This document shows, in pieces, positions 41,001-63,335 of a stretch of 64,000 bases of DNA (positions within the stretch are counted from its first letter, which is position 1; each line of letters opens with the position of its first letter). A program made the translations under genes and the position numbers. The DNA is from Schmidtea polychroa. Lineage: Eukaryota. The stretch covers positions 34,288,001 to 34,352,000 of the forward strand of contig CM097885.1 of NCBI GenBank assembly GCA_044892525.1, written 5' to 3'. A model generated the notes under the pieces. That model did no database searches. It was not told the DNA's origin and saw only the letters and a program-made list of their open reading frames with translations.

Positions 41001-44000
41001 AATTGCCGCGAACCGGGATCGAACCAGTGACCTTTAGATCTTCAGTCTAACGCTCTCCCAACTGAGCTATCGCGGCTTATTTACAATAACAGACATCAGC
41101 TCATCACTGGTAAATTCCACTAGAGCTTTATTTTCAAATTTCATCAAACACCAATCTTATTTCCAACGTTCAAATCATTATCATTTGAATTCAGATCAAT
41201 ATAATATTTCAATTTCAATATTTGACAAGTGACATAAATTTTTTCAAAAATTTAATTGCCGCGAACCGGGATCGAACCCAGTGACCTTTAGATCTTCAGT
41301 CTAACGCTCTCCCAACTGAGCTATCGCGGCTTATTTACAATAACAGACATCAGCTCATCACTGGTAAATTCCACTAGAGCTTTATTTTCAAATTTTCATC
41401 AAACACCAATCTTATTTCCAACGTTCAAATTCATTATCATTTGAATTCAGATCAATATAATATTTCAATTTCAATATTTGACAAGTGACATAAATTTTTT
41501 CAAAAATTCAATTGCCGCGAACCGGGATCGAACCAGTGACCTTTAGATCTTCAGTCTAACGCTCTCCAACTGAGCTATCGCGGCTTATTTACAATAACAG
41601 ACATCAGCTCATCACTGGTAAATTCCACTAGAGCTTTATTTTCAAAATTTTCATCAAACACCAATCTTATTTCCAACGTTCAAATTCATTATCATTTGAA
41701 TTCAGATCAATATAATATTTCAATTTCAATATTTGACAAGTGACATAAATTTTTTCAAAAATTTAATTGCCGCGAACCGGGATCGAACCAGTGACCTTTA
41801 GATCTTCAGTCTAACGCTCTCCCAACTGAGCTATCGCGGCTTATTTACAATAACAGACATCAGCTCATCACTGGTAAATTCCACTAGAGCTTTATTTTCA
41901 AATTTTCATCAAACACCAATCTTATTTCCAACGTTCAAATTCATTATCATTTGAATTCAGATCAATATAATATTTCAATTTCAATATTTGACAAGTGACA
42001 TAAATTTTTTCAAAAATTTAATTGCCGCGAACCGGGATCGAACCAGTGACCTTTAGATCTTCAGTCTAACGCTCTCCAACTGAGCTATCGCGGCTTATTT
42101 ACAATAACAGACATCAGCTCATCACTGGTAAATTCCACTAGAGCTTTATTTTCAAATTTTCATCAAACACCAATCTTATTTCCAACGTTCAAATTCATTA
42201 TCATTTGAATTCAGATCAATATAATATTTCAATTTCAATATTTGACAAGTGACATAAATTTTTTCAAAAATTTAATTGCCGCGAACCGGGATCGAACCAG
42301 TGACCTTTAGATCTTCAGTCTAACGCTCTCCCAACTGAGCTATCGCGGCTTATTTACAATAACAGACATCAGCTCATCACTGGTAAATTCCACTAGAGCT
42401 TTATTTTCAAATTTTCATCAAACACCAATCTTATTTCCAACGTTCAAATTCATTATCATTTGAATTCAGATCAATATAATATTTCAATTTCAATATTTGA
42501 CAAGTGACATAAATTTTTTCAAAAATTTAATTGCCGCGAACCGGGATCGAACCAGTGACCTTTAGATCTTCAGTCTAACGCTCTCCAACTGAGCTATCGC
42601 GGCTTATTTACAATAACAGACATCAGCTCATCACTGGTAAATTCCACTAGAGCTTTATTTTCAAATTTTCATCAAACACCAATCTTATTTCCAACGTTCA
42701 AATTCATTATCATTTGAATTCAGATCAATATAATATTTCAATTTCAATATTTGACAAGTGACATAAATTTTTTCAAAAATTTAATTGCCGCGAACCGGGA
42801 TCGAACCAGTGACCTTTAGATCTTCAGTCTAACGCTCTCCCAACTGAGCTATCGCGGCTTATTTACAATAACAGACATCAGCTCATCACTGTTAAATTCC
42901 ACTAGAGCTTTATTTTCAAATTTTCATCAAACACCAATCTTATTTCCAACGTTCAAATTCATTATCATTTGAATTCAGATCAATATAATATTTCAATTTC
43001 AATATTTGACAAGTGACATAAATTTTTTCAAAAATTTAATTGCCGCGAACCGGGATCGAACCAGTGACCTTTAGATCTTCAGTCTAACGCTCTCCCAACT
43101 GAGCTATCGCGGCTTATTTACAATAACAGACATCAGCTCATCACTGGTAAATTCCACTAGAGCTTTATTTTCAAATTTTCATCAAACACCAATCTTATTT
43201 CCAACGTTCAAATTCATTATCATTTGAATTCAGATCAATATAATATTTCAATTTCAATATTTGACAAGTGACATAAATTTTTTCAAAAATTTAATTGCCG
43301 CGAACCGGGATCGAACCAGTGACCTTTAGATCTTCAGTCTAACGCTCTCCCAACTGAGCTATCGCGGCTTATTTACAATAACAGACATCAGCTCATCACT
43401 GGTAAATTCCACTAGAGCTTTATTTTCAAATTTTCATCAAACACCAATCTTATTTCCAACGTTCAAATTCATTATCATTTGAATTCAGATCAATATAATA
43501 TTTCAATTTCAATATTTGACAAGTGACATAAATTTTTTCAAAAATTTAATTGCCGCGAACCGGGATCGAACCAGTGACCTTTAGATCTTCAGTCTAACGC
43601 TCTCCAACTGAGCTATCGCGGCTTATTTACAATAACAGACATCAGCTCATCACTGGTAAATTCCACTAGAGCTTTATTTTCAAATTTTCATCAAACACCA
43701 ATCTTATTTCCAACGTTCAAATTCATTATCATTTGAATTCAGATCAATATAATATTTCAATTTCAATATTTGACAAGTGACATAAATTTTTTCAAAAATT
43801 TAATTGCCGCGAACCGGGATCGAACCAGTGACCTTTAGATCTTCAGTCTAACGCTCTCCCAACTGAGCTATCGCGGCTTATTTACAATAACAGACATCAG
43901 CTCATCACTGGTAAATTCCACTAGAGCTTTATTTTCAAATTTTCATCAAACACCAATCTTATTTCCAACGTTCAAATTCATTATCATTTGAATTCAGATC

Positions 44001-47000
44001 AATATAATATTTCAATTTCAATATTTGACAAGTGACATAAATTTTTTCAAAAATTTAATTGCCGCGAACCGGGATCGAACCAGTGACCTTTAGATCTTCA
44101 GTCTAACGCTCTCCCAACTGAGCTATCGCGGCTTATTTACAATAACAGACATCAGCTCATCACTGGTAAATTCCACTAGAGCTTTATTTTCAAATTTTCA
44201 TCAAACACCAATCTTATTTCCAACGTTCAAATTCATTATCATTTGAATTCAGATCAATATAATATTTCAATTTCAATATTTGACAAGTGACATAAATTTT
44301 TTCAAAAATTTAATTGCCGCGAACCGGGATCGAACCAGTGACCTTTAGATCTTCAGTCTAACGCTCTCCCAACTGAGCTATCGCGGCTTATTTACAATAA
44401 CAGACATCAGCTCATCACTGGTAAATTCCACTAGAGCTTTATTTTCAAATTTTCATCAAACACCAATCTTATTTCCAACGTTCAAATTCATTATCATTTG
44501 AATTCAGATCAATATAATATTTCAATTTCAATATTTGACAAGTGACATAAATTTTTTCAAAAATTTAATTGCCGCGAACCGGGATCGAACCAGTGACCTT
44601 TAGATCTTCAGTCTAACGCTCTCCCAACTGAGCTATCGCGGCTTATTTACAATAACAGACATCAGCTCATCACTGGTAAATTCCACTAGAGCTTTATTTT
44701 CAAATTTTCATCAAACACCAATCTTATTTCCAACGTTCAAATTCATTATCATTTGAATTCAGATCAATATAATATTTCAATTTCAATATTTGACAAGTGA
44801 CATAAATTTTTTCAAAAATTTAATTGCCGCGAACCGGGATCGAACCAGTGACCTTTAGATCTTCAGTCTAACGCTCTCCCAACTGAGCTATCGCGGCTTA
44901 TTTACAATAACAGACATCAGCTCATCACTGGTAAATTCCACTAGAGCTTTATTTTCAAATTTTCATCAAACACCAATCTTATTTCCAACGTTCAAATTCA
45001 TTATCATTTGAATTCAGATCAATATAATATTTCAATTTCAATATTTGACAAGTGACATAAATTTTTTCAAAAATTTAATTGCCGCGAACCGGGATCGAAC
45101 CAGTGACCTTTAGATCTTCAGTCTAACGCTCTCCCAACTGAGCTATCGCGGCTTATTTACAATAACAGACATCAGCTCATCACTGGTAAATTCCACTAGA
45201 GCTTTATTTTCAAATTTTCATCAAACACCAATCTTATTTCCAACGTTCAAATTCATTATCATTTGAATTCAGATCAATATAATATTTCAATTTCAATATT
45301 TGACAAGTGACATAAATTTTTTCAAAAATTTAATTGCCGCGAACCGGGATCGAACCAGTGACCTTTAGATCTTCAGTCTAACGCTCTCCCAACTGAGCTA
45401 TCGCGGCTTATTTACAATAACAGACATCAGCTCATCACTGGTAAATTCCACTAGAGCTTTATTTTCAAATTTTCATCAAACACCAATCTTATTTCCAACG
45501 TTCAAATTCATTATCATTTGAATTCAGATCAATATAATATTTCAATTTCAATATTTGACAAGTGACATAAATTTTTTCAAAAATTTAATTGCCGCGAACC
45601 GGGATCGAACCAGTGACCTTTAGATCTTCAGTCTAACGCTCTCCCAACTGAGCTATCGCGGCTTATTTACAATAACAGACATCAGCTCATCACTGGTAAA
45701 TTCCACTAGAGCTTTATTTTCAAATTTTCATCAAACACCAATCTTATTTCCAACGTTCAAATTCATTATCATTTGAATTCAGATCAATATAATATTTCAA
45801 TTTCAATATTTGACAAGTGACATAAATTTTTTCAAAAATTTAATTGCCGCGAACCGGGATCGAACCAGTGACCTTTAGATCTTCAGTCTAACGCTCTCCC
45901 AACTGAGCTATCGCGGCTTATTTACAATAACAGACATCAGCTCATCACTGGTAAATTCCACTAGAGCTTTATTTTCAAATTTTCATCAAACACCAATCTT
46001 ATTTCCAACGTTCAAATTCATTATCATTTGAATTCAGATCAATATAATATTTCAATTTCAATATTTGACAAGTGACATAAATTTTTTCAAAAATTTAATT
46101 GCCGCGAACCGGGATCGAACCAGTGACCTTTAGATCTTCAGTCTAACGCTCTCCCAACTGAGCTATCGCGGCTTATTTACAATAACAGACATCAGCTCAT
46201 CACTGGTAAATTCCACTAGAGCTTTATTTTCAAATTTTCATCAAACACCAATCTTATTTCCAACGTTCAAATTCATTATCATTTGAATTCAGATCAATAT
46301 AATATTTCAATTTCAATATTTGACAAGTGACATAAATTTTTTCAAAAATTTAATTGCCGCGAACCGGGATCGAACCAGTGACCTTTAGATCTTCAGTCTA
46401 ACGCTCTCCCAACTGAGCTATCGCGGCTTATTTACAATAACAGACATCAGCTCATCACTGGTAAATTCCACTAGAGCTTTATTTTCAAATTTTCATCAAA
46501 CACCAATCTTATTTCCAACGTTCAAATTCATTATCATTTGAATTCAGATCAATATAATATTTCAATTTCAATATTTGACAAGTGACATAAATTTTTTCAA
46601 AAATTTAATTGCCGCGAACCGGGATCGAACCAGTGACCTTTAGATCTTCAGTCTAACGCTCTCCCAACTGAGCTATCGCGGCTTATTTACAATAACAGAC
46701 ATCAGCTCATCACTGGTAAATTCCACTAGAGCTTTATTTTCAAATTTTCATCAAACACCAATCTTATTTCCAACGTTCAAATTCATTATCATTTGAATTC
46801 AGATCAATATAATATTTCAATTTCAATATTTGACAAGTGACATAAATTTTTTCAAAAATTTAATTGCCGCGAACCGGGATCGAACCAGTGACCTTTAGAT
46901 CTTCAGTCTAACGCTCTCCCAACTGAGCTATCGCGGCTTATTTACAATAACAGACATCAGCTCATCACTGGTAAATTCCACTAGAGCTTTATTTTCAAAT

Positions 47001-49414
47001 TTTCATCAAACACCAATCTTATTTCCAACGTTCAAATTCATTATCATTTGAATTCAGATCAATATAATATTTCAATTTCAATATTTGACAAGTGACATAA
47101 ATTTTTTCAAAAATTTAATTGCCGCGAACCGGGATCGAACCAGTGACCTTTAGATCTTCAGTCTAACGCTCTCCCAACTGAGCTATCGCGGCTTATTTAC
47201 AATAACAGACATCAGCTCATCACTGGTAAATTCCACTAGAGCTTTATTTTCAAATTTTCATCAAACACCAATCTTATTTCCAACGTTCAAATTCATTATC
47301 ATTTGAATTCAGATCAATATAATATTTCAATTTCAATATTTGACAAGTGACATAAATTTTTTCAAAAATTTAATTGCCGCGAACCGGGATCGAACCAGTG
47401 ACCTTTAGATCTTCAGTCTAACGCTCTCCCAACTGAGCTATCGCGGCTTATTTACAATAACAGACATCAGCTCATCACTGGTAAATTCCACTAGAGCTTT
47501 ATTTTCAAATTTTCATCAAACACCAATCTTATTTCCAACGTTCAAATTCATTATCATTTGAATTCAGATCAATATAATATTTCAATTTCAATATTTGACA
47601 AGTGACATAAATTTTTTCAAAAATTTAATTGCCGCGAACCGGGATCGAACCAGTGACCTTTAGATCTTCAGTCTAACGCTCTCCCAACTGAGCTATCGCG
47701 GCTTATTTACAATAACAGACATCAGCTCATCACTGGTAAATTCCACTAGAGCTTTATTTTCAAATTTTCATCAAACACCAATCTTATTTCCAACGTTCAA
47801 ATTCATTATCATTTGAATTCAGATCAATATAATATTTCAATTTCAATATTTGACAAGTGACATAAATTTTTTCAAAAATTTAATTGCCGCGAACCGGGAT
47901 CGAACCAGTGACCTTTAGATCTTCAGTCTAACGCTCTCCCAACTGAGCTATCGCGGCTTATTTACAATAACAGACATCAGCTCATCACTGGTAAATTCCA
48001 CTAGAGCTTTATTTTCAAATTTTCATCAAACACCAATCTTATTTCCAACGTTCAAATTCATTATCATTTGAATTCAGATCAATATAATATTTCAATTTCA
48101 ATATTTGACAAGTGACATAAATTTTTTCAAAAATTTAATTGCCGCGAACCGGGATCGAACCAGTGACCTTTAGATCTTCAGTCTAACGCTCTCCCAACTG
48201 AGCTATCGCGGCTTATTTACAATAACAGACATCAGCTCATCACTGGTAAATTCCACTAGAGCTTTATTTTCAAATTTTCATCAAACACCAATCTTATTTC
48301 CAACGTTCAAATTCATTATCATTTGAATTCAGATCAATATAATATTTCAATTTCAATATTTGACAAGTGACATAAATTTTTTCAAAAATTTAATTGCCGC
48401 GAACCGGGATCGAACCAGTGACCTTTAGATCTTCAGTCTAACGCTCTCCCAACTGAGCTATCGCGGCTTATTTACAATAACAGACATCAGCTCATCACTG
48501 GTAAATTCCACTAGAGCTTTATTTTCAAATTTTCATCAAACACCAATCTTATTTCCAACGTTCAAATTCATTATCATTTGAATTCAGATCAATATAATAT
48601 TTCAATTTCAATATTTGACAAGTGACATAAATTTTTTCAAAAATTTAATTGCCGCGAACCGGGATCGAACCAGTGACCTTTAGATCTTCAGTCTAACGCT
48701 CTCCCAACTGAGCTATCGCGGCTTATTTACAATAACAGACATCAGCTCATCACTGGTAAATTCCACTAGAGCTTTATTTTCAAATTTTCATCAAACACCA
48801 ATCTTATTTCCAACGTTCAAATTCATTATCATTTGAATTCAGATCAATATAATATTTCAATTTCAATATTTGACAAGTGACATAAATTTTTTCAAAAATT
48901 TAATTGCCGCGAACCGGGATCGAACCAGTGACCTTTAGATCTTCAGTCTAACGCTCTCCCAACTGAGCTATCGCGGCTTATTTACAATAACAGACATCAG
49001 CTCATCACTGGTAAATTCCACTAGAGCTTTATTTTCAAATTTTCATCAAACACCAATCTTATTTCCAACGTTCAAATTCATTATCATTTGAATTCAGATC
49101 AATATAATATTTCAATTTCAATATTTGACAAGTGACATAAATTTTTTCAAAAATTTAATTGCCGCGAACCGGGATCGAACCAGTGACCTTTAGATCTTCA
49201 GTCTAACGCTCTCCCAACTGAGCTATCGCGGCTTATTTACAATAACAGACATCAGCTCATCACTGGTAAATTCCACTAGAGCTTTATTTTCAAATTTTCA
49301 TCAAACACCAATCTTATTTCCAACGTTCAAATTCATTATCATTTGAATTCAGATCAATATAATATTTCAATTTCAATATTTGACAAGTGACATAAATTTT
49401 TTCAAAAATTTAAT

Positions 49415-49483
49415 TGCCGCGAACCGGGATCGAACCAGTGACCTTTAGATCTTCAGTCTAACGCTCTCCCAACTGAGCTATCG
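49415..49483 (-). pseudogene. Terminal tRNA-Phe copy lacking nucleotides 1-4 (GCCG), interrupted by the retrotransposon 3' end
   Basis: The plus strand reads ...gagctatcg|ttaaaacatttatt instead of ...gagctatcg|cggcttattt. Confidence 0.95.
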
Positions 49484-50006
49484 TTAAAACATTTATTAAT
49501 TATAATAAATTTGATATTTGTATTTACAATAGGACAGTGCTCAGCATGGAACACGCCTTTCTAGAAAATAACAAGAACAAAAGAGTCAGAAAGAAATCGA
49601 TCATATTCACTGTATTTTTCGGGATTATTTCGACTCAGATGTTAATGTCAATTTTCTGATTAGTCCCTGGCTCTGATGATATCGCAGTCATCGGATGTTT
49701 TATCCGGCTTTGAATATTGGAGTGTTCAATTACATCAGTTTTCACCAGTCATTCAACCTGCAATCTGTTTCCTGGGCTGATGTTGAGAATCTGAACCTTC
49801 AATACGCAGCATCTAAACAATATCCTTGCAATAGACAAAAAAAGCATATTTACATGTTTATAAATATATACAACTGCCTTTCTTTTGGAGGGTTCATCTA
49901 AAATTCTAAATATATACAAAGATATTTATACATATACATTGATATTTAAAAACCCGAGAATGACAATGCTTCTGAGATCTTAGAGCAATTCGTTATGGAG
50001 ATTTTT
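49484..50006 (-). other. 3' UTR of the retrotransposon, with AATAAA 8 nt before the junction and no poly(A) tract
   Basis: Lies between the ORF2 stop (50007) and the tRNA junction; plus strand tttatt at 49492-49497. Confidence 0.8.
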
Positions 50007-53000
50007 CTAATTAAGGTCTGCTAAAGTGCCAGTTTTGTGGTAGTACCACCGTCTGGCAGAATGTGTGATGTTACTTATCGCACATTCCTTCAGTAGACTG
50101 TTTATTTCTGTGCGTTTAACTCCAATTTTTAAAAGGATTTCAGGAGTTGATGACGGAAAAGAACCCAAAGCTCCGATAATACAAGTGTCAAGTTCGACTT
50201 TGAAATCAGGTTTGACAGCTTGTATTTCATTCTTAAGCGATTCGTATTTAATTAAATTTGAAGAGTCAACTAGTTGAAAGTTCTTGATAGAGTCGATAGG
50301 ACATTTCATGTCAACTAGAAAGATCTTCCTTTTCAACAAATCAGTGATCATTAAATCCACTCGTTCTTTGGAATTCGGAACAAGTGAACAGATATGATCT
50401 ACTACAACAATCAAGTTGGGATTTTTCATTAATCGACTAGTGATTAATTTCAGACAGTCATCATGTCGCTCTGAGGCAAGGGTCAGATGGACTTTACAAG
50501 ATTGAATGATATGTGACATTGTCTCTTCCTCAGTTTGACAACGACGACAAAGTCTTTTACCACCTTTATTGTAAGGCTTCGCATTGACTGAGAGGGAGTT
50601 TGTGCGAGCTCTGTGTATGAAGTTCCAAGCAAATTCAGAGAGAGCACCACGAAAAATTGCGATGTTTATTTTAGGCGAAAGTCTGATTGCTGCAGCTATA
50701 ATGTTGGAGTTATGACTGTTCTCTCCTTTCAAAAGATAGGCATCGCAGAGTGCCATGTGCAAAACCTTAGACGTGGTTTGGCGTAAGTCAGAAGTGAGAA
50801 TACACGTGCCACGCATTGCTGTTGTAATATAAAGCGATGTTTCTTGCTTTGTTACAATAAATGCTATTGAGATTTTGTGATATTTTTCAAAAAATGCAAT
50901 AGCAGTTCTGACTCGCTGGAATCGAGTTTTCTTTCCAGAATGGCAAAGTTTGGATTGCTTACCATTGAGCCAGTCAAGACTCTCCTGTAGTGTAGGGTCT
51001 TTTATTCCGAGTCGAGGTCCAGTGACAAAGCTCAGAGAATCAGTGTTGATCTTTTTCGCAAAGTCACACTTAGATGTTAAGAGTCGAAAGAAATGTGTTA
51101 TTGTCTGTGTGTGATATTCGTCAAGAAGGTCTACACAGTTTGCTCCTCCGTTTTCAGTTGAGTTGTAGAAATAACTTACTTCAGAGTGATTTGGCAAAAG
51201 TAACATTTTTCTGAGACAACTCCTCACTTGACTGGTGATGTTGACAGAACGATTACTATTGGCGCTTGGTTTTGAAAGAGTGCTAGTTTTAATTTCGCGA
51301 GTTCTAAAGGGAAAAATCAAACGTGAATGGACAAAGATCTTATAAGCTTTAAGTTTTTGCCATCCAAGTAGGTCAGAATCGGCAAGTTTTTTCGTGTCAG
51401 ATACGACCTTCTCAAGAATGTCATATGGATTCTGATCAGTCTCTTCACCAACAGGCACTCCAAGATACTGATAAAATTCATTAGGTTGTAATTTTTTGAT
51501 TTTAATGCCGTCAATCGAAATTTCACTATCTATTTCAAGGTTTGGCAATTGAAGATATGCACACTTTTCAGGGCGATATTCAAAGCCAATTTCAGTTGCA
51601 GTTGCTACAGCTATATCGGTGATTTTCTGAAGTTCTTCAACAGATTTTGTAACTAAAGCTATGTCATCTGCATATGCAAGGATCTTAATTGGAGATTTCC
51701 CAATCCTGAAAGGTCTACAATCGGATCGCGATACAGCTTCAAGTACTGGATTAATGGCCAAAGCAAACAATATCATCGATATTGGACATCCTTGTTTGAC
51801 ACCTTGTTTAATAGGGATGTTTGGTGTCAGAATATTACCACAGCTGTAAAAGGTACTTGTGTTGGAATATAACATCTGGATGATGGATGCAAATTCCTCG
51901 CTTACTCCAATGAATCGGAGTAAGGACCACATGTATTCATGGGGAACACTACCAAAGGCATCTTTTATATCAAGCCAAGCAATTGCAAGAGGCTTATTTA
52001 CGCTGTATTTTGAGTGTTCTAGTGCAGCAGAAAGAATTGAATTATGCTCAACACATCCATCATGTTGTGAGCCACCTTTTTGACCGATATGTAAAAGATC
52101 ATTCGAGTTTATCCAACTTGTCAGACGACTAGCTAAACAAGATGCGAAAACCTTGTAAATGACAGAAAGCAAGGCAATTGGACGCCAAGACGAGACGTCA
52201 TCATATTTTCCATCTTTATCCGGCTTAGGAGTTAGAAGTGTTTTGAAGGTCTTCCAACTGTCTGGTATGGTCTTGTTTAAAATGATTTTATTGTACAAGA
52301 AAGTAAGCAATTTACCCTCGGGATCAAGAGACAACAAGTCACGATATTGTATTCCATCAATACCAGGACTTGTGTTCTCAGCTTTCTTTAGTTCGAAAAG
52401 TACTTCATCACATGTGAGCAAAATTAAACGAAGTTTAATTTGGGAACGTTTACAGAATTCAAATATTTTATCCCATGATTTTTCTAAAGGGGTTTTGTGC
52501 ATGAAATTCATGACAATATTTTGAAATTTTGGCATCACTGTGATATTTGTATTGTTGAAGATTTTATTGACTGTTGACTTCATATCAGTCATGAATTTTG
52601 CGATTAATTTACCCTTGTTGATTTTTGAAGGTAATTTCTTTTTATTTCCCAAGTATGGTTTATGAGTTGATTTTAATTTGTCAGGGAATTGCTCAATGAT
52701 AACATCAATGATTTCGTTTACATTGAAATCTGTCACTCTCCTCAGTAGTTCTAATGCTCTGAGTTTACGCAATTCTAAATTTGCATTCCCCTCTTTATTT
52801 TTGTTACTGTTTGTTGGTCTTACAGTCTTTTTCCTATTAAAATCATTTACAATTGGGATAAATGAGCTGACGACATTACCAATTTCGCGTAAGTTCAAAT
52901 TTGTAAGAGGTAAGTCTTTAGCATAGTTTTGGATGAACGCGCATATCAGGATTTTACTAACTAGACCTGATCCTCGAGTGTCATGAGGACAATTACCAGT

Positions 53001-54611
53001 ATATAATACACGGCCAGGTGATTCTCTGATTTCATTAATTTTGTTCCTAAGAATTTTGCAGGTAGGAAGATAACTTTCATTACCACTCAGTGTCGTCGGA
53101 TTTAGAAGATAGTGCTCATCAGTTTGGTAATCAATGATAAACAAGATTTCCCTTGATTTTTCTGGTGCTACGATAGTAAATATGACTTGTGCCTTGATCA
53201 ACGATTCACAATCTAAAAATTCATTTAAATATCTAGTGCAATCGTCAAGAATCGCAGTGCACATTGTAGCATTTAAAAACATGAACTTTGTGGGTAAGTT
53301 TAATTTATGAATGTATTTTGATGTGATTTCATCATTAATTTTACAGTTAATTAAGTTTAAATTCCTGGAGATCTCGTTTGTTTGTTGTATTTTATAAGAT
53401 TTAAGGGACTCACTGATACTTCTACGACAAACCTGATTGTCAAAAAGTAATTTTTCGACCAATTCAATGACAGCAGAAGCAAATATATCTGGGTCAACAG
53501 ATGTGATGGAAATGTGGTCGATGTTGTGGAGACTATTGAAGTTGATCTTCGTTTGAGAAAGGAAAAATTTATTCATATAGTCTGTCATGTTTTCTCCTAT
53601 GCCGATTAGTCTCTCAGTTAGAATTCTGTTGTTAAAGTTGAAAATGTAACTGATTCCTAAAACGAAAGAGAAAAGATACAGACTCCAATTCGTGTCGTCT
53701 GGAATGACGCTGATGACATGTTCTATTCCAGAAAATTGTTTAAACGTGACATTTTCCCTGATGAATATATCGTTTTGTGCAATAATATTCAATGTCAGTT
53801 CATGAGAAAGAATAGTATTATTGCTTTTATCTTTATACCATTCACTAATCAGGTATGTGACACATGAGTTCTGTTTCTGGAGATGTATCAGGTTACCATT
53901 CCTCACCTTCTTAACTCCATTTCGTTTGATTGTCTCCATGAATTTTGGAAGGCCACCCCCCGAAGTATTGGGATCTTTTTGTTGTTGAGTAAGTTTAAAC
54001 TGGTGGACCTCTTTCCTGATAGTCTCGATGAAGCAGCCCGACAAGCTCTGCCATTCTCCACAAATCATCATGGCATATGCGCAGATGTATGGCCCACAAT
54101 CATAGTTATTATTTTGATATAAAAGGTTATTATGAGGATGAAAAGTCATGGCTGCTTTAAGGTCAAACAATTCATTCAGAGCCATTGTGATCTTAAGAGC
54201 AATTGTTTTATTCGTAAAACTATGCCGATTTAGAAGAATTGGATCGATGAAGTAAGAAATTAGGGAAGATTTACAATAAACGAACAAGATCCAATGAGAT
54301 TTGTTGATGTTAAGGGGGCATAATATTACTTGTGCTTTCAAGACTCTTTCCGGAATTGGGAAAGTGTCATTCTCGAGGTTAGAGCACAAAATCTCAACGA
54401 TAAAACATTTGATAGACGCAAATTCTGTGTTGATGATGTGATTTTCGAGAAAATTATCAATATCATCATCAGTGAACCAGATCTTTGGGTCGCGTTTTAC
54501 CATCAAATTTTTATTATTATTAATGATGTCGTGATGTTTATTAGAATTTTTTGTGCTGTCTGCATCAGTCTCCTTAGAGATTGGGGCAGATGTTGAGACT
54601 GATACAGGCAC
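50007..54611 (-). CDS. ORF2 polyprotein: Ulp1/C48-like protease, two degenerate protease-like repeats, reverse transcriptase, CCHC zinc knuckle, restriction-like endonuclease
   Basis: Protease motifs: WFTDDDI, HW (H106), D123, QNNNYDCG (Q166, C172). RT motifs: SPGIDGI, WRPIALL, LDIKDAFGSV, GVKQGCPIS, YADD (51663-51674), YQYLG. Knuckle: CRRC-x8-H-x4-C, followed by RHD. RLE: RVDL...LVDMK...KY. The track start codon is GTG; the first ATG is at 54503. Confidence 0.95.
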   Translation of the reverse strand: MPVSVSTSAPISKETDADSTKNSNKHHDIINNNKNLMVKRDPKIWFTDDDIDNFLENHIINTEFASIKCFIVEILCSNLENDTFPIPERVLKAQVILCPLNINKSHWILFVYCKSSLISYFIDPILLNRHSFTNKTIALKITMALNELFDLKAAMTFHPHNNLLYQNNNYDCGPYICAYAMMICGEWQSLSGCFIETIRKEVHQFKLTQQQKDPNTSGGGLPKFMETIKRNGVKKVRNGNLIHLQKQNSCVTYLISEWYKDKSNNTILSHELTLNIIAQNDIFIRENVTFKQFSGIEHVISVIPDDTNWSLYLFSFVLGISYIFNFNNRILTERLIGIGENMTDYMNKFFLSQTKINFNSLHNIDHISITSVDPDIFASAVIELVEKLLFDNQVCRRSISESLKSYKIQQTNEISRNLNLINCKINDEITSKYIHKLNLPTKFMFLNATMCTAILDDCTRYLNEFLDCESLIKAQVIFTIVAPEKSREILFIIDYQTDEHYLLNPTTLSGNESYLPTCKILRNKINEIRESPGRVLYTGNCPHDTRGSGLVSKILICAFIQNYAKDLPLTNLNLREIGNVVSSFIPIVNDFNRKKTVRPTNSNKNKEGNANLELRKLRALELLRRVTDFNVNEIIDVIIEQFPDKLKSTHKPYLGNKKKLPSKINKGKLIAKFMTDMKSTVNKIFNNTNITVMPKFQNIVMNFMHKTPLEKSWDKIFEFCKRSQIKLRLILLTCDEVLFELKKAENTSPGIDGIQYRDLLSLDPEGKLLTFLYNKIILNKTIPDSWKTFKTLLTPKPDKDGKYDDVSSWRPIALLSVIYKVFASCLASRLTSWINSNDLLHIGQKGGSQHDGCVEHNSILSAALEHSKYSVNKPLAIAWLDIKDAFGSVPHEYMWSLLRFIGVSEEFASIIQMLYSNTSTFYSCGNILTPNIPIKQGVKQGCPISMILFALAINPVLEAVSRSDCRPFRIGKSPIKILAYADDIALVTKSVEELQKITDIAVATATEIGFEYRPEKCAYLQLPNLEIDSEISIDGIKIKKLQPNEFYQYLGVPVGEETDQNPYDILEKVVSDTKKLADSDLLGWQKLKAYKIFVHSRLIFPFRTREIKTSTLSKPSANSNRSVNITSQVRSCLRKMLLLPNHSEVSYFYNSTENGGANCVDLLDEYHTQTITHFFRLLTSKCDFAKKINTDSLSFVTGPRLGIKDPTLQESLDWLNGKQSKLCHSGKKTRFQRVRTAIAFFEKYHKISIAFIVTKQETSLYITTAMRGTCILTSDLRQTTSKVLHMALCDAYLLKGENSHNSNIIAAAIRLSPKINIAIFRGALSEFAWNFIHRARTNSLSVNAKPYNKGGKRLCRRCQTEEETMSHIIQSCKVHLTLASERHDDCLKLITSRLMKNPNLIVVVDHICSLVPNSKERVDLMITDLLKRKIFLVDMKCPIDSIKNFQLVDSSNLIKYESLKNEIQAVKPDFKVELDTCIIGALGSFPSSTPEILLKIGVKRTEINSLLKECAISNITHSARRWYYHKTGTLADLN

Positions 54612-54617
54612 GCACCT

Positions 54618-55946
54618 TCATTTAATCTTGGAGACTACTTTCCTCGTTTTCCTACTTGGTCTTGTTTGTAAGTCCTCCTGTTGATCACAACAAGAAATTG
54701 CGGGAGTAGATGGGATTATATCCAAATCAACAGGCAGCTGTCGTTTCAGAGTCGCATGTTCTTGTAGATCACCCTCCAGAATGTCGTTAATCTCTATGGA
54801 TCGAGATGGCTCTTTCACAGCTGTTTCCACCGAGGTATCTAGTCCAGATGTGTTTCTCCTCTGCTCACCATTACTTTCAATCACAGATGTCAAGAGGACA
54901 TCAAGCATGTCTGTGATAATGCAAGTCATATTTGGTGTGCAAATTTTCCTACAATGCTTAGGTATACGGTAGGAGAATTTACTGTTAGATAAAAATTTCT
55001 TTTTGTCTCTAATGATAAAAAAGAGAAATCTTTTAGCTTTTATCATCTCTTCTTCGGATGTGCCTAATTCCATTTGATTAATGTTGCGGCCCAAATTCTC
55101 AAGAACCTTAAGTTGGGCAGCCTTTTGTGGACAGATTTCATCAATTTTGTCAAGAAAGGAATTGATTTTATAGATGGTTTCTGGAGAGATAATGTTGTGT
55201 ATTCTATCGATCTCCTCTGACAGTTTCCACTGTCGAAGTTTTAGTAGTCTTTCCTGACAACTAGAAGAGTAGTATGAAAGACTGGGGATCATATTAATCA
55301 TCTCCGGACCCCAATTTTCAATGTTGTCGCACCTTAATGTATTGCAATTTTCAATTTTAGTAATTGAGTGCATCAAAAAACAATTACGTAAATAGTTTTT
55401 AACGTACTCATCAAATGTAGGATTTGAAATGTGTATTATGGTGCCTTTTAAATTTAAATAGTTGATATAATATATTATGTCAACCAGTTTAGATGGGGAG
55501 TTTGGCTGAGTCAGAAGAGATTTAAGTATGGGGTCATCTTCTGACATTTTAACAAAATTAATCAATCCCAGGTTGAACATTATATCAGACGCATTTTCAG
55601 AATGTGGGACTTTAGGAATTTCAGGAATTTTATTAGTTTTAATAAATTTGCCCTTCACAAACGAGATCTCGTTAGGGAAATTTTTTTCTAATTTTAAATC
55701 ATTAATTAATTTAGTTAGTAAATCAGGATTCTTATTTATATTCTCAGAAAAATATAATTCCTGAATTTCAGGAAACGATTTATATAACTCTTTCAACTGT
55801 GATCGCGAAAGTTCTAAGGTTTGAAGACTGGTGTTCTCATTACCAGAGTCACAGCTATTGAAAAGATCTAATAAGATAAAATCACCTTCAGAAAATTTTA
55901 TCTGTGATCTTATCAAGAAATCGGGAAGTTCACGTCGTTGTTTCAT
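54618..55946 (-). CDS. ORF1 of the retrotransposon, unknown function (442 aa from the first ATG; frame open to 56069)
   Basis: Long open frame in AT-rich DNA directly upstream of and in frame with ORF2. Its C-terminal part is conserved in the second copy (KAKRFLFFIxRDKKKFL). I recognise no domain. Confidence 0.8.
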   Translation of the reverse strand: MKQRRELPDFLIRSQIKFSEGDFILLDLFNSCDSGNENTSLQTLELSRSQLKELYKSFPEIQELYFSENINKNPDLLTKLINDLKLEKNFPNEISFVKGKFIKTNKIPEIPKVPHSENASDIMFNLGLINFVKMSEDDPILKSLLTQPNSPSKLVDIIYYINYLNLKGTIIHISNPTFDEYVKNYLRNCFLMHSITKIENCNTLRCDNIENWGPEMINMIPSLSYYSSSCQERLLKLRQWKLSEEIDRIHNIISPETIYKINSFLDKIDEICPQKAAQLKVLENLGRNINQMELGTSEEEMIKAKRFLFFIIRDKKKFLSNSKFSYRIPKHCRKICTPNMTCIITDMLDVLLTSVIESNGEQRRNTSGLDTSVETAVKEPSRSIEINDILEGDLQEHATLKRQLPVDLDIIPSTPAISCCDQQEDLQTRPSRKTRKVVSKIK

Positions 55947-56134
55947 TCCATTCAAGATGTTATTTGTCTGTGCCGCTCTTTGATTTATATTTTTGATGGT
56001 AGCCGTCTCTGCGAGCTTATGTGAGTAGGTAGTTAGGAGCCCGCTGCCGCAACCCCCCCCCTGCGGCAAGAATATTTTTGCGGCACGATTTTTTTTTGCG
56101 GCAACTTTTGATTACGCAATTTTTTAGACTATTT

Positions 56135-56790
56135 TGAGGGGGTCTCGATGGTCCTGGGATTTTCAATACAAAAAAATTTTTTTTCAATACAAAAACGATG
56201 GTCCTGAGATTTTCAATACAAAAAGGTGGTCTTCAATAAAAAAGCCAAGGATTATTCACATTATAGTGAGGGGGTCTTGATGGTCCAGGGATTTTCAATA
56301 CAAAAAATTTTTTCAATAGAAAAAGGCGGTCTTCAATAAAAAAGCATGGAATTTTCAGAATATAGTGAGGGGGTCTCGATGGTCCTGAGATTTTCAATAC
56401 AAAAAGGTGGTCTTCAATAAAAAAGCCAAGGATTATTCACATTATAGTGAGGGGTCTTGATGGTCCAGGGATTTTCAATACAAAAAATTTTTTCAATACA
56501 AAAAGGTGGTCTACACTAAAAAAGAGTGGCAATTTAAGGTCTCAGGATATTTTCAATACAAAAAGGTGGTCTACACTAAAAGACAGTGGTAATTTAAGGT
56601 CTCATGATAATTTCAATACAAAAATCTGATTATCACTAAAAAAGCATGGATTATTCACACTATAGTGAGGGGGTCTCCTTGGTCCTGTGATTTTCAATAG
56701 AAAAAGGTGGTCTTCAATAAAAAAGCATGGTAATTTAAGGTCTCAGGATATTTTCAATAGAAAAAAGTGGTTTACACTAAAAAACATGGT
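56135..56790 (+). repeat. Complex minisatellite built from gagggggtctcgatggtcc / ttttcaatacaaaaaggtggtc modules
   Basis: gagggggtct occurs at about 56136, 56268, 56367, 56449 and 56667, with many ttttcaata(c/g)aaaaa modules between. Confidence 0.85.
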
Positions 56791-56799
56791 AAATTTTTT

Positions 56800-57480
56800 A
56801 AAATAAAGCAAATTATGGGTCTAAAAATTGAATTACAGTAAATTATGGGCTAAGATTTTTGAATTAAAGTAAATGATGGTCTAAATAAGTAAATTATGGT
56901 CCAAAATTTAACTTAGAGTAAATTATGGGCTCAGATTTTTGAATTAAAGTTATCAATGGGCTCAAATAAGTAAATTAAGGTTAAAATTTTTAAATAAAAG
57001 TAAATTATGGGTATAAAAATTCAATTACAGTAAATAATGGTCCAAATTTTTCTATTAAAGTAAATAATGGTTCAAATTTTTAAATTAAAGTAATGAATGG
57101 GCTCAAATAACTAAATTAAGGTTCTAAAAAATTAAATTAAAGTTAATTAAGGTCCACATTTTAAAATTAAGTAATCAATGGTCAAAAATTTTAAATTAAA
57201 GTTAAATAAGTAAATTAAAGTAATAATTTTTAAATAGGTAATGTAATAAGTAAATTAAAGTAAGATTTTAAAATTTATTAACAAAAAGTTGAAATAATAG
57301 AAGGTGTTTGAGAATTGAAATTTTTTAATGAAAATTTTTATGAAATAATTTTTTAAGTTAATTTTTAATGGAAATTTTTATGAAATATTTTTCAATGATA
57401 ATTTTAGATGGAAATTTTTAAGATAATTTTTAATGAAAATTTTAATGAAATATTTTTCAAAGACAAATTTTAATAATAAT
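56800..57480 (+). repeat. AT-rich degenerate tandem repeats (aaagtaaattatgg ~30-bp type, then aatgaaaatttt type)
   Basis: Repeated gtaaattatgg / gtaaattaagg motifs followed by repeated tgaaaatttt motifs. Confidence 0.8.
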
Positions 57481-58600
57481 TCAACAACAAACCAACAACT
57501 TAGTACCAACAACCAGTAACTTACGAACATGTATTAACAACCAGATACCTACAACTAGTTACTAACAACCAGTTACCTGATACCAAGTACTTACAACTAG
57601 TTACTAACAACATGTTACCTGTTACCAAGTACTTACAACCAGTTACCTGCTACCAAATACTTACAACTAGTTACTAACAACCAATTACCTGCTACCAAGT
57701 ACTTACAACGAGATACCACGTACTAAATAACTCTCAAACAACCAAGTACCTACAACAAATTACCAGATACCAAGTACCTACAACTAATTACTAACAACTA
57801 GTTACCTGATACTAAGTACCTACAACCATCTAACAAGTACTAACAACCAAAAACAAGCAACCAACTAGGTACCAAGTACTAACAACCGACAAAAACCAGC
57901 TAACAACTAACTACCACCTACCAACTACTTACAACCAACATCAACCAGGTACTAAGCATTAATTACCAACTACTAAGTACCTACAACCAACTACTAAGTA
58001 CTAACAACCTACAACAACCAGCTACTAAGCATTATCAACCAAGTACCTACAACTATATACTAACAACCAAAAACAACCAACCAAATAGGTACCAGATACC
58101 AAGTACCTACAATCAACAACAACCAGTAACTTACGAACATATATTTACAACCAGATACCTACAACTAGTTACTAACAACTAGTTACCTGATACCAACTAC
58201 TCACAACCACCATCAACCAGCTACTAAGCATTATCAACCAACTACTAAGTACCTACAACCACCATCAACCAGCTACTATGCATTATCAACCAACTAACTA
58301 CCACCTACCAAGTACTTACAACCCACAACAACCAGATACCTACAACTAGATACTAACAACTAGTTACCTGATACCAACTACTCACAACCACCTACCAAGT
58401 ACATACAAATAGTTACTAACAACCAGTTACTTGCTACTAAGTACCTTCAACCAACTAGCTACCACCTACTAAGTACCAACAATCAACTAACAACCAGGTA
58501 CTAAGCATTATCAACCAACTACTAACAACCAAGTACAAGATACCTAGTATTAAGCACTGTCAACTAGATACCAAGTACTTACAACCAGATGACCACATGA
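57480..58600 (+). repeat. A/C-rich degenerate minisatellite (taccaagtac / tacaac / actaacaac modules)
   Basis: Dozens of shuffled short modules with strong strand skew. Related blocks occur at ~59380-59500 and ~59900-60230. Confidence 0.8.
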
Positions 58601-58876
58601 AATTATTGGTTAAATATGAAAATAAGGTGTAAAATTAAGAAATAAAGAATAATTAGGTAATTAAAGTTAAAAATTTTAAATAAGTAAATTAAGGTTCAAA
58701 ATTTAAAATTAAGTAACCAATGGTTCAAATTTTAAATTAAAGCTAAATAAGTAAATTAAAGTAAGATTTTTAAATTTATTATCAAAAAGATTGAAGAACC
58801 ACCAACTTTTTTTGAGAAATGTAATTTTTAATGAAAATTTAAATGGAAATTGTTTTTTTTTAAGTTAATTTTAAAT

Positions 58877-59234
58877 TAGGGTTATTAATATCGGTTTTTC
58901 GAGCAATCCGATTATCGTTTGTATAAATCCGATTTTAAACCGATTATCGTTTGCACTTTGCATAACCAAAGCTACTTACATTATTACTATTCACGCACGT
59001 GTATAGTATAATTAGTTTTATTCAAAGTTTATACCACACACAAGGAGAATATGAACTGACTGTTTATGTAAAAAGTTAAAGCATATAAGTAAATTTGTTT
59101 TCAATTTCTTCGATAATTTTCCCTGTATATAGTATATACCGAAACAAAACCGATTATCGTTTTGTGAAATAAAGAAACCGATAATCGTTTTCAAAATCGA
59201 AAATCGGATTTCCGATTTTCGTTTAACAACCCTA
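58877..59234. mobile_element. 358-bp non-autonomous hAT-like DNA transposon (MITE)
   Basis: TIRs TAGGGTTATTAA ... TTAACAACCCTA (11 of 12 match), a perfect 8-bp TSD TTTTAAAT at 58869-58876 and 59235-59242, and subterminal ccgat(t/a)atcgttt repeats near both ends. Confidence 0.88.
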
Positions 59235-59282
59235 TTTTAAATGTAAAATTTTTTAAGTTAATTTTTAATGAAAATTTTAATG

Positions 59283-59283
<1 letters not shown>

Positions 59284-59363
<80 letters not shown>

Positions 59364-59376
59364 TAATAATAATAAT
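59284..59376 (+). repeat. (AAT)n microsatellite, about 31 units with one interruption
   Basis: Read directly from the sequence. Confidence 0.97.
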
Positions 59377-60774
59377 TCAACAGTTACCAACAATCGGTTA
59401 CTAAATATTTTTAACTAGATGCTAACAAATACTTTCAACACGATACCACGTACTAACTAACTATCAAACAACCAGATACTTACAACTAACTACTAAATAT
59501 TCTTCACTGTATTTTATGAAATGCTTTTTAAATTAATTTTTTATCTGTCTTCAAAAATATGTTTAATTACAATCAATAGAAAACCTTTTCAAAATGTCTA
59601 AATTTAACAAAAATGTTGATTTTCATCAAAAAATAATTGACAACTCATCACCACGTGAAATTCAAAATAATTTAAATTACAATGAAAGACTAATGAATTC
59701 TAATTTACAAAACATTCTTCTTTTAATTGATTACTACTGACTTATTATTGCAAAGTAAAAATCGCATTCAATAAATACTTATTGTTGATCAGTTTTATTA
59801 TATATACTCTGAGTTTATCCGACAGGATGTTTTGACCCCCTAAGGGTACTGGTGGTAAGGGTATTAGTCGTAAAGGTACTAGTCGTAAGGGTATTGGTAA
59901 CACTCAAACACCACCTACCCATTAACTAGCTACTAAGTACTAACAACCAGCTAACAACTAGATACCATGTACTAACAACCACCATCAACCAGATACTAAA
60001 CATTATTAACCTACAACTATATAACAACAAATCAGTAAACAACACTGTACCAACTACCAAATACAAGATACCAACAACTAGATACCAAGTACCAACAATA
60101 AACTAATCACACATAAAAATAATAGCAAATAAATACAAAATATTCTTCATCACATACACTATCTTCTTATCAAAATCTAAAAAGTCAACCAACTACTTAC
60201 AACCAACAACTATGTACTAACAAATTGATCTTTAAAAGAAAATACTCATCACTTGAAAAATTGGATGAAAAATTAATTGAATTCAAGGCATCAATAACTT
60301 GGTAAAAATTGATTAAATAATTGTAAAAATTTAAATTATTCAAAATAAATATCATAAAAATTTAATTAATGGACAAGAAAGAACATTAAATTTGAATCCT
60401 TAGTCATCCAGTAAATAAAAAAATACTGATCATTCAAGTTGAATCAACTAAGTTAATAAATTAATAAGAATTTTGAAATAAGATCTAATAAATAACTGAT
60501 TTAGATTGAATAAATTAATTTAAATAAAATTAGTTTTAATTATTTTTTTTTAAAAGTAATACATGTACTCAAATTGATTAACAGATTGCTCAAAATATTC
60601 AAAAAATCAGTATAAATTCATTACAATTATCAAAGTCAGCAATCTACAATAAAAATAATTATCATTAAATTCCAAAAGAGACAAGATAACTAATGATAAC
60701 ATCTAACAAACCAGTAAATTCATTTAAATGACAATAATTGGTATATTCAAGCGAATTCTCGAATAAAATCATCT

Positions 60775-61085
60775 AAAAGCATCAGATTTTCCTGAAATAA
60801 CTCTATCTTTAAAGATTAATATTTTATCGATAAATATCCTTAAAAGGTTATATATTTACCTCAGACTAATAAGATTGCTAAAATCCCCTTTAAATGACTA
60901 TATTTCAACCCTTAATTCATATTATTACAAATATCATCAAAAAGCATCAAATTTCCTTGAAATAACTATCCTTAAAGATTGATATTTTAATGATAAGTAC
61001 CCGTAAAAGATCATATATTCCCCTCAGACTAATAAGATTGCTTAAAATCCCTTTAAATGACTATAATTCTTACTTTAATTCCTAT
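60775..61085 (+). repeat. Two diverged tandem copies of a ~165-bp unit
   Basis: aaaagcatca...cctcagactaataagattgct...ctttaaatgactata occurs starting at 60775 and at 60940. Confidence 0.85.
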
Positions 61086-61602
61086 TATCATACATATTTC
61101 ACTATTGATAAAACCAGTTATAATTAAATTTTTTTTAATCACTGTACTCGATATTTTAAATAAATATTACTACAATATAACTGACTAGGTCCCATTGAAA
61201 GAATAAATTTATCCATTCAATAAAATAAATTTCTTCAAATGATCATTTTTACCAATATTCAACCGATTTAATTACTAATTAAAATCATTCGATAAAATTT
61301 CTTTAAATAAAGATCAATTTTCTTTAGTCGATGTTTTAAGTCCATATTTCTCAACTTTTGTCATTCTCCGCTTAAATAAAGATAAAAATAATTTAAATTT
61401 GATATCAATTCCAATTATCTGTAAAGATTTCATTGTCAAAACCAAGTAAATCGATCATCATCTCTACTTAATAAAAAATTGTTCTAAATTAATTTACTGT
61501 GCATTAATCACAACCTAATAAAACGATATAATTATTATTGATTCATAATTGACTAATGTATTGACATTTCCCTTAAAACATTGATATTTTACCAACATCT
61601 CG

Positions 61603-61706
61603 CTTACAATGATATATTCCCATCTTAACCCATCCTTCATTAAATTAAATCGACTATATCCCACTTACAATGATATATTCCCATCTTAACCCATCCTTCA
61701 TTAAAT
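61603..61706 (+). repeat. 43-bp direct repeat with 61-bp period
   Basis: cttacaatgatatattcccatcttaacccatccttcattaaat at 61603 and 61664. Confidence 0.9.
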
Positions 61707-61708
61707 CT

Positions 61709-61831
61709 AAAAAATTTTTTTTGTATTGAAAATCCCAGGACCATCGTTTTTGTATTGAAAAAAAATTTTTTTGTATTGAAAAAAATTTTTTTGTATTGAA
61801 AATCCCATGACCATCGAGACCCCCTCACTAT
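61709..61831 (-). repeat. Inverted copy of the 56135 minisatellite end
   Basis: Reverse complement reads tagtgagggggtctcgatggtcatgggattttcaatacaaaaaa..., matching the sequence from 56135. Confidence 0.9.
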
Positions 61832-61932
61832 TTGAGTATATTTTTGAGTATTTTTTGTTATTAATCAAATTTTTGCTTTTAAAATATTTTGTATTTTGAT
61901 ACATTTTATTTTTCAAAAGGCCTTTGTTTTCT

Positions 61933-62481
61933 TTAGCCAAAAAAATTTGAATCGTTTTTTTCAACTTTAATTATATTTAATTCTGATTTGTTTAAGTTAT
62001 TTAATTTAATATTAGATAACATTTGGTCTTCAAATTTAGGTAAATAAAATTCTACTTTTCGAATTTTATTATTTACAGTTATTTTTAATTCAGGTTCCAG
62101 ATATCCACATGCCTGAGCCTGATGGTCAAGAGAAGGGCCACTCCGGATTATCGAATCAGAACTTGATTTTTTTACAAATAAATTTTTATTTAAATTTTTT
62201 ACTTTATTTTTAGTTGAGTAATTAGTATAATTAGGATCATTAGAATCATTAGAGATATTCGTTCTAGATCCAGCATTTAAGGGGTTATTTATAATTTTAG
62301 GTTTAATTATATTTAAAGCATTTGAATTATTTCTTAATTTAATAATATAAGAAATTTTTCTATTTAATTTATGTTTTTGATTTTGAAAATCATTTACTTT
62401 ATTTTGATAAGAATTATATCTATCAGAATGAAATCCATTACTAAAATTGTTTTTAAATTCATTATCTTTTACAAAATTCAT
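61933..62481 (-). CDS. Asn/Lys-rich open frame (182 aa), possibly a fragment of another element; function unsupported
   Basis: Open frame in very AT-rich DNA. Its ATG overlaps the breakpoint of the degenerate retrotransposon copy, and it has no diagnostic motif. Confidence 0.2.
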   Translation of the reverse strand: MNFVKDNEFKNNFSNGFHSDRYNSYQNKVNDFQNQKHKLNRKISYIIKLRNNSNALNIIKPKIINNPLNAGSRTNISNDSNDPNYTNYSTKNKVKNLNKNLFVKKSSSDSIIRSGPSLDHQAQACGYLEPELKITVNNKIRKVEFYLPKFEDQMLSNIKLNNLNKSELNIIKVEKNDSNFFG

Positions 62482-63335
62482 TCAGAGCCATTGTGATTTT
62501 AAGAGCAATTGTTTTATTCGTAAAACTATGCCGATTTAGAAGGATTGGATCGATGAAGTAAGAAATAAGGGAAGATTTACAATAAACGAAGATCCAATGA
62601 GATTTGTTGATGTTAAGGGGGCGTAATATTACTTGTGCTTTCAAAACTCTTTCCGGAATTGGGAAAGTGTCATTCTCGAGGTTGGAGCACAAAATCTCAA
62701 CAATAAAACATTTAATAGACGCAAATTCTGGGTTGATGATGTGATTGTCGAGAAAGTTATCGATCTCATCATCAGTGAACCAGATCTTTGGGTCGTATTT
62801 TACTATAAAATTTTTATCATGTTTAATAATATTTATTGTGCTGTCTGCATCAGTCTCCTTCGAGATTGGGGCAGATGTTGAGACTGATGCAGGCACGAAC
62901 TTTCATTTAATCTTGGGAACTACTTTCCTCGTTTTCCTACTTGGTCTAGTTAGTAGGTCCTTCTGTTGATCACAAGTGGAAATTGTGGGTGTAGATGGGA
63001 TTATATCCAAATCAACAGGCAGCTGTCGTTTCAGAGTTGTCTGTTCCTTTAGTTCAGATTTCAAAGAGTCTCTATGGAGTTAGATGTCTCTTTCGCAACC
63101 GGTTCCACGGATTCTTTGATGGTTTCTGAGGTGTTTGAATCAGATGTGTCCGTTTTTTGTTCACCGTTATTTCCAATCACATATGGCAGCAGAACATCAA
63201 GCATGCCTGTAATAATGCAAGATATACGGTAGGAGAATTTACTGGTGAATAGAAATTTCTTTTTGTCTCTAAGAATGAAAAAAAGAAATCTTTTAGCCTT
63301 ATTCATCTCTTTGTCATTTGTGACTAGTTCCATTT
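62475..63335 (-). pseudogene. Degenerate internal fragment of the same retrotransposon family (ORF1 C-terminus plus ORF2 N-terminus)
   Basis: Aligns by eye to ~54169-55075. It has internal deletions (HWILF to HWIF; PKHCRKICTPNM lost), a frame disruption near 63060, and is truncated before the protease catalytic Cys. Confidence 0.92.

Follow-up and report, generated by a model that had tools for sequence, protein, structure and literature searches.

At the edge of a tandem array of tRNA-Phe genes in Schmidtea polychroa, a retrotransposon of the kind lacking long terminal repeats (non-LTR) ends inside one of the genes, and we asked whether this element recognizes tRNA-Phe, as the initial annotation of the locus had proposed, or a broader target. 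The stretch analysed (the window) comprises the 64,000 nucleotides C1:34288001-34352000 of the 781-Mb assembly; C1 and C201 designate contigs and L-numbers the loci extracted for comparison. Judged from its insertion sites, the family in the window appears to be a real, site-specific and recently active retrotransposon of the LIN25 group which is not Phe-specific. We consider it likely that this member of the LIN25 group (R5/LIN, NeSL clade) uses one protein, encoded by open reading frame 2 (ORF2), to insert between nucleotides (nt) 4 and 5 of any tRNA gene carrying G6-R7-T8-V9-G10-Y11.

Analysis of the window with ARAGORN identified 191 tRNA-Phe(GAA) genes in a tandem array on the reverse strand (191..49232, unit of 255 bp, with a run of N at 16529-17028), in which 154 of 189 units were identical. 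Irregular units were found at 11740-11960 and 15520-15780 of the window, one showing a 40-bp spacer loss and one a partial tRNA duplication. The interrupted gene (49415..49483, reverse strand) retains nt 5-73 and has lost nt 1-4 (GCCG), and a Ulp1–reverse transcriptase (RT)–CCHC–restriction-like endonuclease (RLE) element in the same orientation terminates exactly at its nt 5, the final base of the element at 49484 adjoining tRNA-Phe nt 5 at 49483. This 3' junction is confirmed as real and is not due to chance, since the 25-nt tail of the element was found 110 times in the genome, with no match to the reversed control, and adjoined nt 5 of a tRNA gene in 108 instances. The placement given by the initial annotation, a co-oriented 3' end against tRNA nt 5 among some 190 near-identical genes, thus holds. 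Within C1:34218000-34337500, the three element copies seen at this Phe array were placed at its two edges, and the exact tail was absent from ~103 kb of the array interior.

The flanks of the 110 tails were assigned to Tyr(GTA) (41), His(GTG) (23), Ser(GCT) (21), Ser(TGA) (11), Glu(TTC) (4), Val (4; two TAC and two CAC), Phe(GAA) (3) and Met(CAT) (1) genes and, in two cases, to a hairpin; none of the 110 lay in ribosomal DNA (rDNA). The tRNA types were checked with ARAGORN on the adjacent intact genes, except for Tyr, which was assigned by eye since this gene contains an intron and ARAGORN wrongly labels it Pro. Alignment of the flanks revealed that nt 6-11, at the edge of the A-box, conform to G-R-T-V-G-Y in 109 of the 110, both hairpin flanks included. 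The flanks of the two hairpin termini were identical, and no credible Rfam family was found for them. The nt 1-4 of the eight intact targets printed were variable (GCCG, GGTT, GTCA, TCCC, GCCT, GCCG, CCGG and GACG), and neither these positions nor the upstream flanks showed anything obvious in common across targets, so that the readout of GCCG/CGA suggested previously gives way to a common part at nt 6-11. G at nt 5 was found at none of the 110 junctions, against 4,034 such genes in the genome.

Copies in different tRNA genes belong to one lineage. Comparison of 32 3' ends showed that six with identical last 355 nt occupy Ser(TGA), Phe and Met genes, while four further ends, identical over the same length, occupy Ser(TGA) and Glu genes. 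Of 16 copies tested over 1.8 kb, 14 were 98.9-99.6% identical to the window copy, and these were distributed among Phe, Val, Ser, Glu, Met and one tRNA-like target; the nearest relative of the window copy in the 3' untranslated region (UTR), at 99.7%, is located in a tRNA-Val gene. The His, Tyr and Ser(GCT) copies represent older subfamilies (91-95%). Among the sequencing runs listed, words of the element were present in 14 of 21 rows in 5 studies, with no RNA run listed as containing them, a tally given no weight as evidence.

Some 38,600 tRNA-like genes carrying a GTTCGA T-loop were counted in the genome, many of them in single-type tandem arrays, and sites with both an A-box and a B-box total ~63,300; of 38,562 tRNA-like genes with this T-loop, 23,341 (60.5%) have G6-R7. 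In the first 16 Mb of C1 many dispersed tRNA-like units were observed, often as inverted pairs ~13 kb apart, as though they lay within the inverted termini of a large DNA transposon.

A looser tail pattern yielded 126 matches (control 1), with 109 at tRNA nt 4|5 and two in the hairpin; the remainder comprised eight D-loop matches in tRNA-Cys or tRNA-like repeats, five in the tRNA-Arg(ACG) D-loop and two non-tRNA termini, which were rejected as window-family copies as they belong to another diverged family. In the D-loop sister family seven of eight termini lie in dispersed tRNA-like repeats. Another sister family (75% identical in the 3' UTR) occupies a Leu(TAA) array with G at nt 5, at or no more than one base from the nt 4|5 register in both gaps checked, and a strict ban on G5 was therefore rejected as a lineage-wide rule. 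A further relative in an Arg(TCT) array (L169) starts past the D-loop GGA, its 5' end bearing a repeated stretch of spacer of ~45 nt, and a metagenome relative on one contig (L080, 31% identical) terminates in the D-loop of tRNA-Phe(GAA) (L080:6770-6861); in 13 loci, 12 belonging to the set of 80 metagenome loci, ARAGORN detected no tRNA. On C201 a chimera was found in which ORF1 and the first 381 amino acids (aa) of ORF2 of the window family are joined in frame to a sister ORF2 ending in tRNA-Cys, and a second site on C1 has the same two ends (L033, L077, L062, L078 and L075 on C201; L041, L063 and L076 on C1). The chimera carries two Ulp1 domains that look catalytically intact. Since it ends in the D-loop of tRNA-Cys, the cut position would go with the RT-RLE half, unless the fusion took place later than the insertion.

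Analysis of the 5' junctions revealed an intact tRNA gene upstream of every array copy whose 5' end was examined. The target DNA missing at the 5' side, reckoned from nt 4|5, amounted to 9 bp in Val, 22-23 in Ser(GCT), 45 in Met, ~105 in Tyr, 178 in Phe (L044), 200 in Ser(TGA) and 272 in His (a truncated copy). Because an intact gene stands before each 5' end, a long target-site duplication sparing the tRNA gene was considered. Loss and duplication are separable only in the alternating Val(TAC)/Val(CAC) array, uniform arrays being unable to distinguish them, and there the order of the junction corresponds to a 9-bp loss with no duplication, so that the duplication was rejected where it could be resolved. 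Foreign spacers were identified at several 5' ends: a Val spacer in L044 and L068, both Phe-array copies, Ser(TGA) plus Phe in L036 and Ser(GCT) in L033. The simplest reading of these spacers is transcription from the upstream spacer followed by 5' transduction, the alternative being recombination. At the 5' junction of the Phe-array copy L068 (L068:160-470) an inverted piece of the 5' part of the element was observed, like a twin-priming product. The single complete 5' end scanned with Rfam (L065) contained no ribozyme match.

The ORF2 of the window copy is open (50007..54617, 1536 aa from stop to stop; this and all other parts of the element lie on the reverse strand). It matched RVT_1 (E 4.5e-26) and Peptidase_C48 (PF02902, E 2.9e-5, over the cut-off) in Pfam, and its best PDB sequence matches were R2 proteins (E 1.5e-48). 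The motifs YADD, CCHC, RHD, D..DxK and KY were all found: the RT core, with an R2-like fold, at 51456..52226 (YADD at 51663-51674), the CCHC motif C1357-C1360-H1369-C1374 at 50496..50549, and the RLE motifs at 50244..50468 (RHD 1384-1386, D1421..D1436-x-K1438 and KY 1457-1458), whose roles were assigned after PMC4838377 and whose PD position reads VD. By its RT, CCHC and RLE motifs the element is an RLE-type (R2-group) non-LTR retrotransposon. In being site-specific and NeSL/R5-like, and in possessing two ORFs and a Ulp1 domain, it agrees with the original description. The model of the RT-RLE part (pLDDT 88) had R2 as its best structural matches (TM 0.66-0.77, seven R2 rows). From this fold and the fixed 3' junctions, by analogy, the element would insert by target-primed reverse transcription. 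Most homologs carry Trp at aa 1298; the Gly found there in the window copy was common to 11 of 11 copies and was rejected as damage. A profile search contributed two distant proteins only, and 10 clusters had no useful name.

The model of the N-terminal part of ORF2 showed one alpha/beta pattern repeated three times. The first repeat is a Ulp1/SENP-type protease domain (53976..54479; H108, D125, Q168 and C174) with a triad that is intact and the Ulp1/SENP fold (Z 17.3, rmsd 3.1, 173 residues aligned to Ulp1). The second (53442..53861) and third (52920..53333) Ulp1-like repeats, recognized by pattern in the whole model and by hhalign rather than by individual fold searches, lack the catalytic His and Cys; their mutual alignment has an hhalign probability of 88, and the alignments of the two to the first repeat are weak (55 and 22). 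No zinc-finger or Myb domain was found upstream of the RT, the region consisting of the three Ulp1-like repeats.

A single in-frame TGA (54618..54620) divides ORF1 from ORF2 in the window copy and in 30 of the 30 junctions printed (two of the loci overlapping with others, and three 5' loci lacking a match), and the same ORF1-TGA-ORF2 layout occurs in L080, with its 31% identical protein. ORF2 has no conserved ATG, the first Met being missing in 15 of the 30 junctions, and Met39 was rejected as its start for this lack. Of 11 homologs, 9 have their start aligned to a GTG (GTG-CCT, 54609-54611) six bases past the TGA, in an alignment that does not display whether ATG or GTG is used. Expression of ORF2 past the TGA may proceed by a GUG restart or by readthrough.

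The window copy is not intact: ORF2 is open, and ORF1 is broken at 56025 by a dispersed repeat. Its C-terminal half lies at 54621..56025 and is followed by the repeat (56026..61831), which is abundant and has a sharp left end, inverted subterminal repeats, a G/C hairpin near the sharp end, tandem subrepeats and an AAT microsatellite (59284-59376). An N-terminal piece of ORF1 (61843..62478, 95.8% to L044) stands beyond the repeat, ~375 bp of ORF1 being lost between this piece and 56025, and a fragment of a diverged copy (62475..63342, reverse strand) contains an ORF1 end, a TGA and the start of a Ulp1 domain. An intact element starting near 56050, as annotated initially, is therefore not what the comparison revealed: the sequence stops at 56025, upstream of which all 29 other extracted copies go on (30 loci out of 40 scored matches), and the complete 5' end would be ~1.3 kb further upstream by comparison with them. 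The 5' half of the target site falls outside the window because the DNA past 56025 is the end of the dispersed repeat. At the other end of the element, the 3' UTR (49484..50006, 523 nt) ends in AATAAATGTTTTAA without poly(A), has a tail similar to that of LIN25_SM, and did not fold above shuffled sequences (z -1.26).

Full copies have a 5' UTR of ~45 nt, an ORF1 of 848-881 aa and a length of ~7.8 kb, measured from the ends, the middle not having been fetched whole. In the third copy examined for ORF1, this frame was split in two pieces. The Ser(TGA) array (L003-L006, L032 and L037-L040) contains repeated, internally deleted copies of ~4.3 kb in which ORF1 and both ends are kept and the RT is gone. 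Two unrelated-looking N-terminal variants of ORF1 were observed on a common C-terminal part (L043 and L052 versus L037). ORF1 had no Pfam match, for three full-length proteins and the window piece, and no Atlas match, which says nothing on novelty.

Two planarian families of the R5/LIN lineage of the NeSL clade, LIN15_SM, specific for tRNA-Arg, and LIN25_SM, specific for tRNA-Glu, were described by Kojima and Jurka in 2015 (PMC4640811). In S6 Fig of that paper the LIN25_SM tail joins tRNA-Glu(TTC) before nt 5, and one tRNA-Tyr-like flank and several tRNA-like N-GAT flanks are included uncommented; 5' boundaries are not stated in its text. Together with the matching hairpin flank, the N-GAT flanks lend support to a sequence rule. 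The window element resembles LIN25_SM in its 3' tail, which lacks poly(A) and is almost identical (agreement at ~26 of the final 30 positions, judged by eye), and in its register, the four Glu junctions lying at the published position, while LIN25_SM is Glu-specific as described and Glu accounts for only 4 of 110 junctions here. The tail motif is common to the sister families too and so is a weak criterion alone, and the comparison with LIN25_SM was by tail and register. Since the tail of L170 and L171, from a diverged family of this genome, is nearer to that of LIN25_SM, the window family is best regarded as a member of the LIN25 group rather than assigned to LIN25_SM itself. LIN15_SM has a similar tail and, with four tRNA-Arg isoacceptors used in one register, is a multi-gene precedent, but its cut lies on the 3' side of the D-arm and its range is confined to one amino-acid class (PMC4640811); its counterpart in this genome seems to be the family with five termini in tRNA-Arg(ACG).

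NeSL-1 and Utopia-1_TSP likewise carry a Ulp1-like protease upstream of RT and RLE (PMC4640811). The window element differs in possessing two ORFs and a series of three Ulp1-like repeats, and its N-terminal region yielded no zinc finger. R2 (9nl2, 9nl3, 9dou and 8gh6) shares the RT-CCHC-RLE fold and the catalytic motifs and also has a fixed bottom-strand cut and a variable top-strand cut, but unlike the window family it uses one 28S site via zinc-finger and Myb domains, and some R2 elements carry a hepatitis delta virus-like ribozyme (PMC4838377, PMC5035012). Membership of the R2 clade was rejected, with neither zinc finger nor Myb domain found and none of the 110 flanks in rDNA. TRE5-A, the endonuclease of which is APE-type, is convergent in its use of many tRNA genes. 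It inserts, however, ~50 bp upstream through TFIIIC/IIIB (PMC3159450), and the Dada DNA transposons, convergent in using the A-box region at nt 8-13, do so with a DDD/E transposase (PMC8869645).

The LIN25-type family and the nt 4|5 register are thus already known, and what is newly described is the multi-isotype range, the variable 5' target loss with the upstream gene whole, the spacers of other arrays at 5' ends, the three Ulp1-fold repeats and the sister families at other tRNA positions. The literature search returned no account of multi-isotype targeting at nt 4|5, although Repbase entries could contain one. The target, for which the initial annotation knew no described family, is therefore catalogued in part: the register, though not the range of isotypes, is in print for LIN25_SM in tRNA-Glu (PMC4640811, S6 Fig).

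Several observations weigh against the reading that one ORF2 protein acts on any tRNA gene with this motif at nt 6-11. The census comprises genome-wide matches to the exact 25-nt tail, and copies with other tails are unseen by it. A hand count of subfamily by target reduces the 110 copies to ~14 independent events, the remaining copies being probably amplification within arrays, and the presence of G6-R7 in all nine gene types is a modest enrichment (p ~0.01-0.02, hand estimate). L009, with a Phe flank, is the sole motif breaker, with T at nt 6. A degenerate motif of 6-7 bp is expected to occur about a million times in the genome (hand estimate), dispersed tRNA-like repeats with the motif (at most 11,558 sites, Tyr genes included) hold none of the 110 termini, and the only copy in such a repeat, L023, has a variant tail. 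The motif is too short to confine insertion to tRNA genes, so that a longer readout, a protein tether to RNA polymerase III (Pol III) genes or survival in arrays must contribute. The RT tree (33 rows) has an open backbone and no labelled R5, LIN, NeSL or Utopia sequence. The chimera, in addition, may have been fused after insertion.

An alternative is a targeting in two steps: contact with proteins would first draw ORF2 to Pol III genes that are active, as by binding of the two inactive Ulp1-like repeats to SUMO-modified TFIIIC/TFIIIB or Pol III, and G-R-T-V-G-Y would set the cut and no more. The shortness of the motif relative to the 108 of 110 matches in tRNA genes, the near absence of insertions from motif-bearing dispersed repeats, the three Ulp1-like repeats in the place of a zinc-finger or Myb domain before the RT, and the route of TRE5-A to tRNA genes by way of TFIIIC/IIIB (PMC3159450) all favour it. 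We nevertheless regard it as rather unlikely, since the chimera with ORF1 and the first repeats of the window family kept the cut position of the sister, the D-loop sister family does use dispersed tRNA-like repeats, the same bias could arise from array amplification and selection, and binding by the repeats is putative. An extension of this idea is held with similar reserve, as a tentative proposal: an RLE lineage tethered to Pol III via inactive, SUMO-binding Ulp1-like repeats would cut at a short, retunable motif, and its sister families would partition the tRNA gene (nt 4/5, nt 5/6 in Leu, and the D-loop in Cys and Arg) and swap RT-RLE halves.

A multi-isotype range that is only apparent, with one insertion per lineage spread by gene conversion or ectopic recombination between arrays, appears improbable. 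Copies within an array do cluster and have common 5' junctions, as array amplification predicts, and foreign spacers occur at some 5' ends, but the junctions keep the nt 5 of each target (C, T or A; 1 of 41 Tyr flanks has C, not T) and the sequence just past the tail, the tRNA types have only few bases in common at the junction, and identical 3' UTRs are found in unrelated arrays, on different contigs and with different 5' junctions. That the window junction is an assembly join of the array contig and a repeat is very improbable: the element stands at the array edge and the array contains an N run, but the base-exact register recurs at 108 places in at least eight array types and, for LIN25_SM, in a published assembly (PMC4640811). 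Virtually no weight is left for specificity for the tRNA-Phe acceptor stem. It agrees with the window junction and two other Phe junctions, while tabulation of the flanks, proposed initially as its check, gave non-Phe flanks in 107 of 110 cases, still with 108 of 110 at tRNA nt 5, and placed the nearest 3' UTR copy in tRNA-Val. The proposal that tRNA arrays serve as a niche is borne out by copies inserted at nt 4/5 in several of them.

The preferred reading, one ORF2 protein acting on G6-R7-T8-V9-G10-Y11 tRNA genes, joins what was observed directly (the anatomy of the domains, a 3' register that is fixed, targets in at least eight types of tRNA gene, 5' junctions that vary, and foreign spacers) to steps that we infer from R2 biochemistry. 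The element RNA would begin in or just past the upstream spacer, and ORF2 would be produced beyond the single TGA by one of the two routes above. The protein would bind the 3' UTR, read the acceptor-stem/A-box edge and nick the bottom strand opposite nt 4/5, and target-primed reverse transcription would start at the exact RNA end. Loose top-strand processing would then strip upstream DNA (9 bp where resolvable) before the 5' end is joined, and unequal exchange within arrays would add or delete copies. The window copy would be a recent insertion at the Phe-array edge, with ORF1 broken afterwards.

The surprise of these results is limited, because the family and the register were already in print. 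The correction to the LIN25-type picture would nonetheless be that, in place of a single tRNA type, the target is a class of genes set by six bases at the A-box edge. The at least eight targets, the sister registers and the chimera provide a natural series for site choice by an RLE protein in which no zinc finger or Myb domain was found, and this bears on the retargeting of R2-like proteins.

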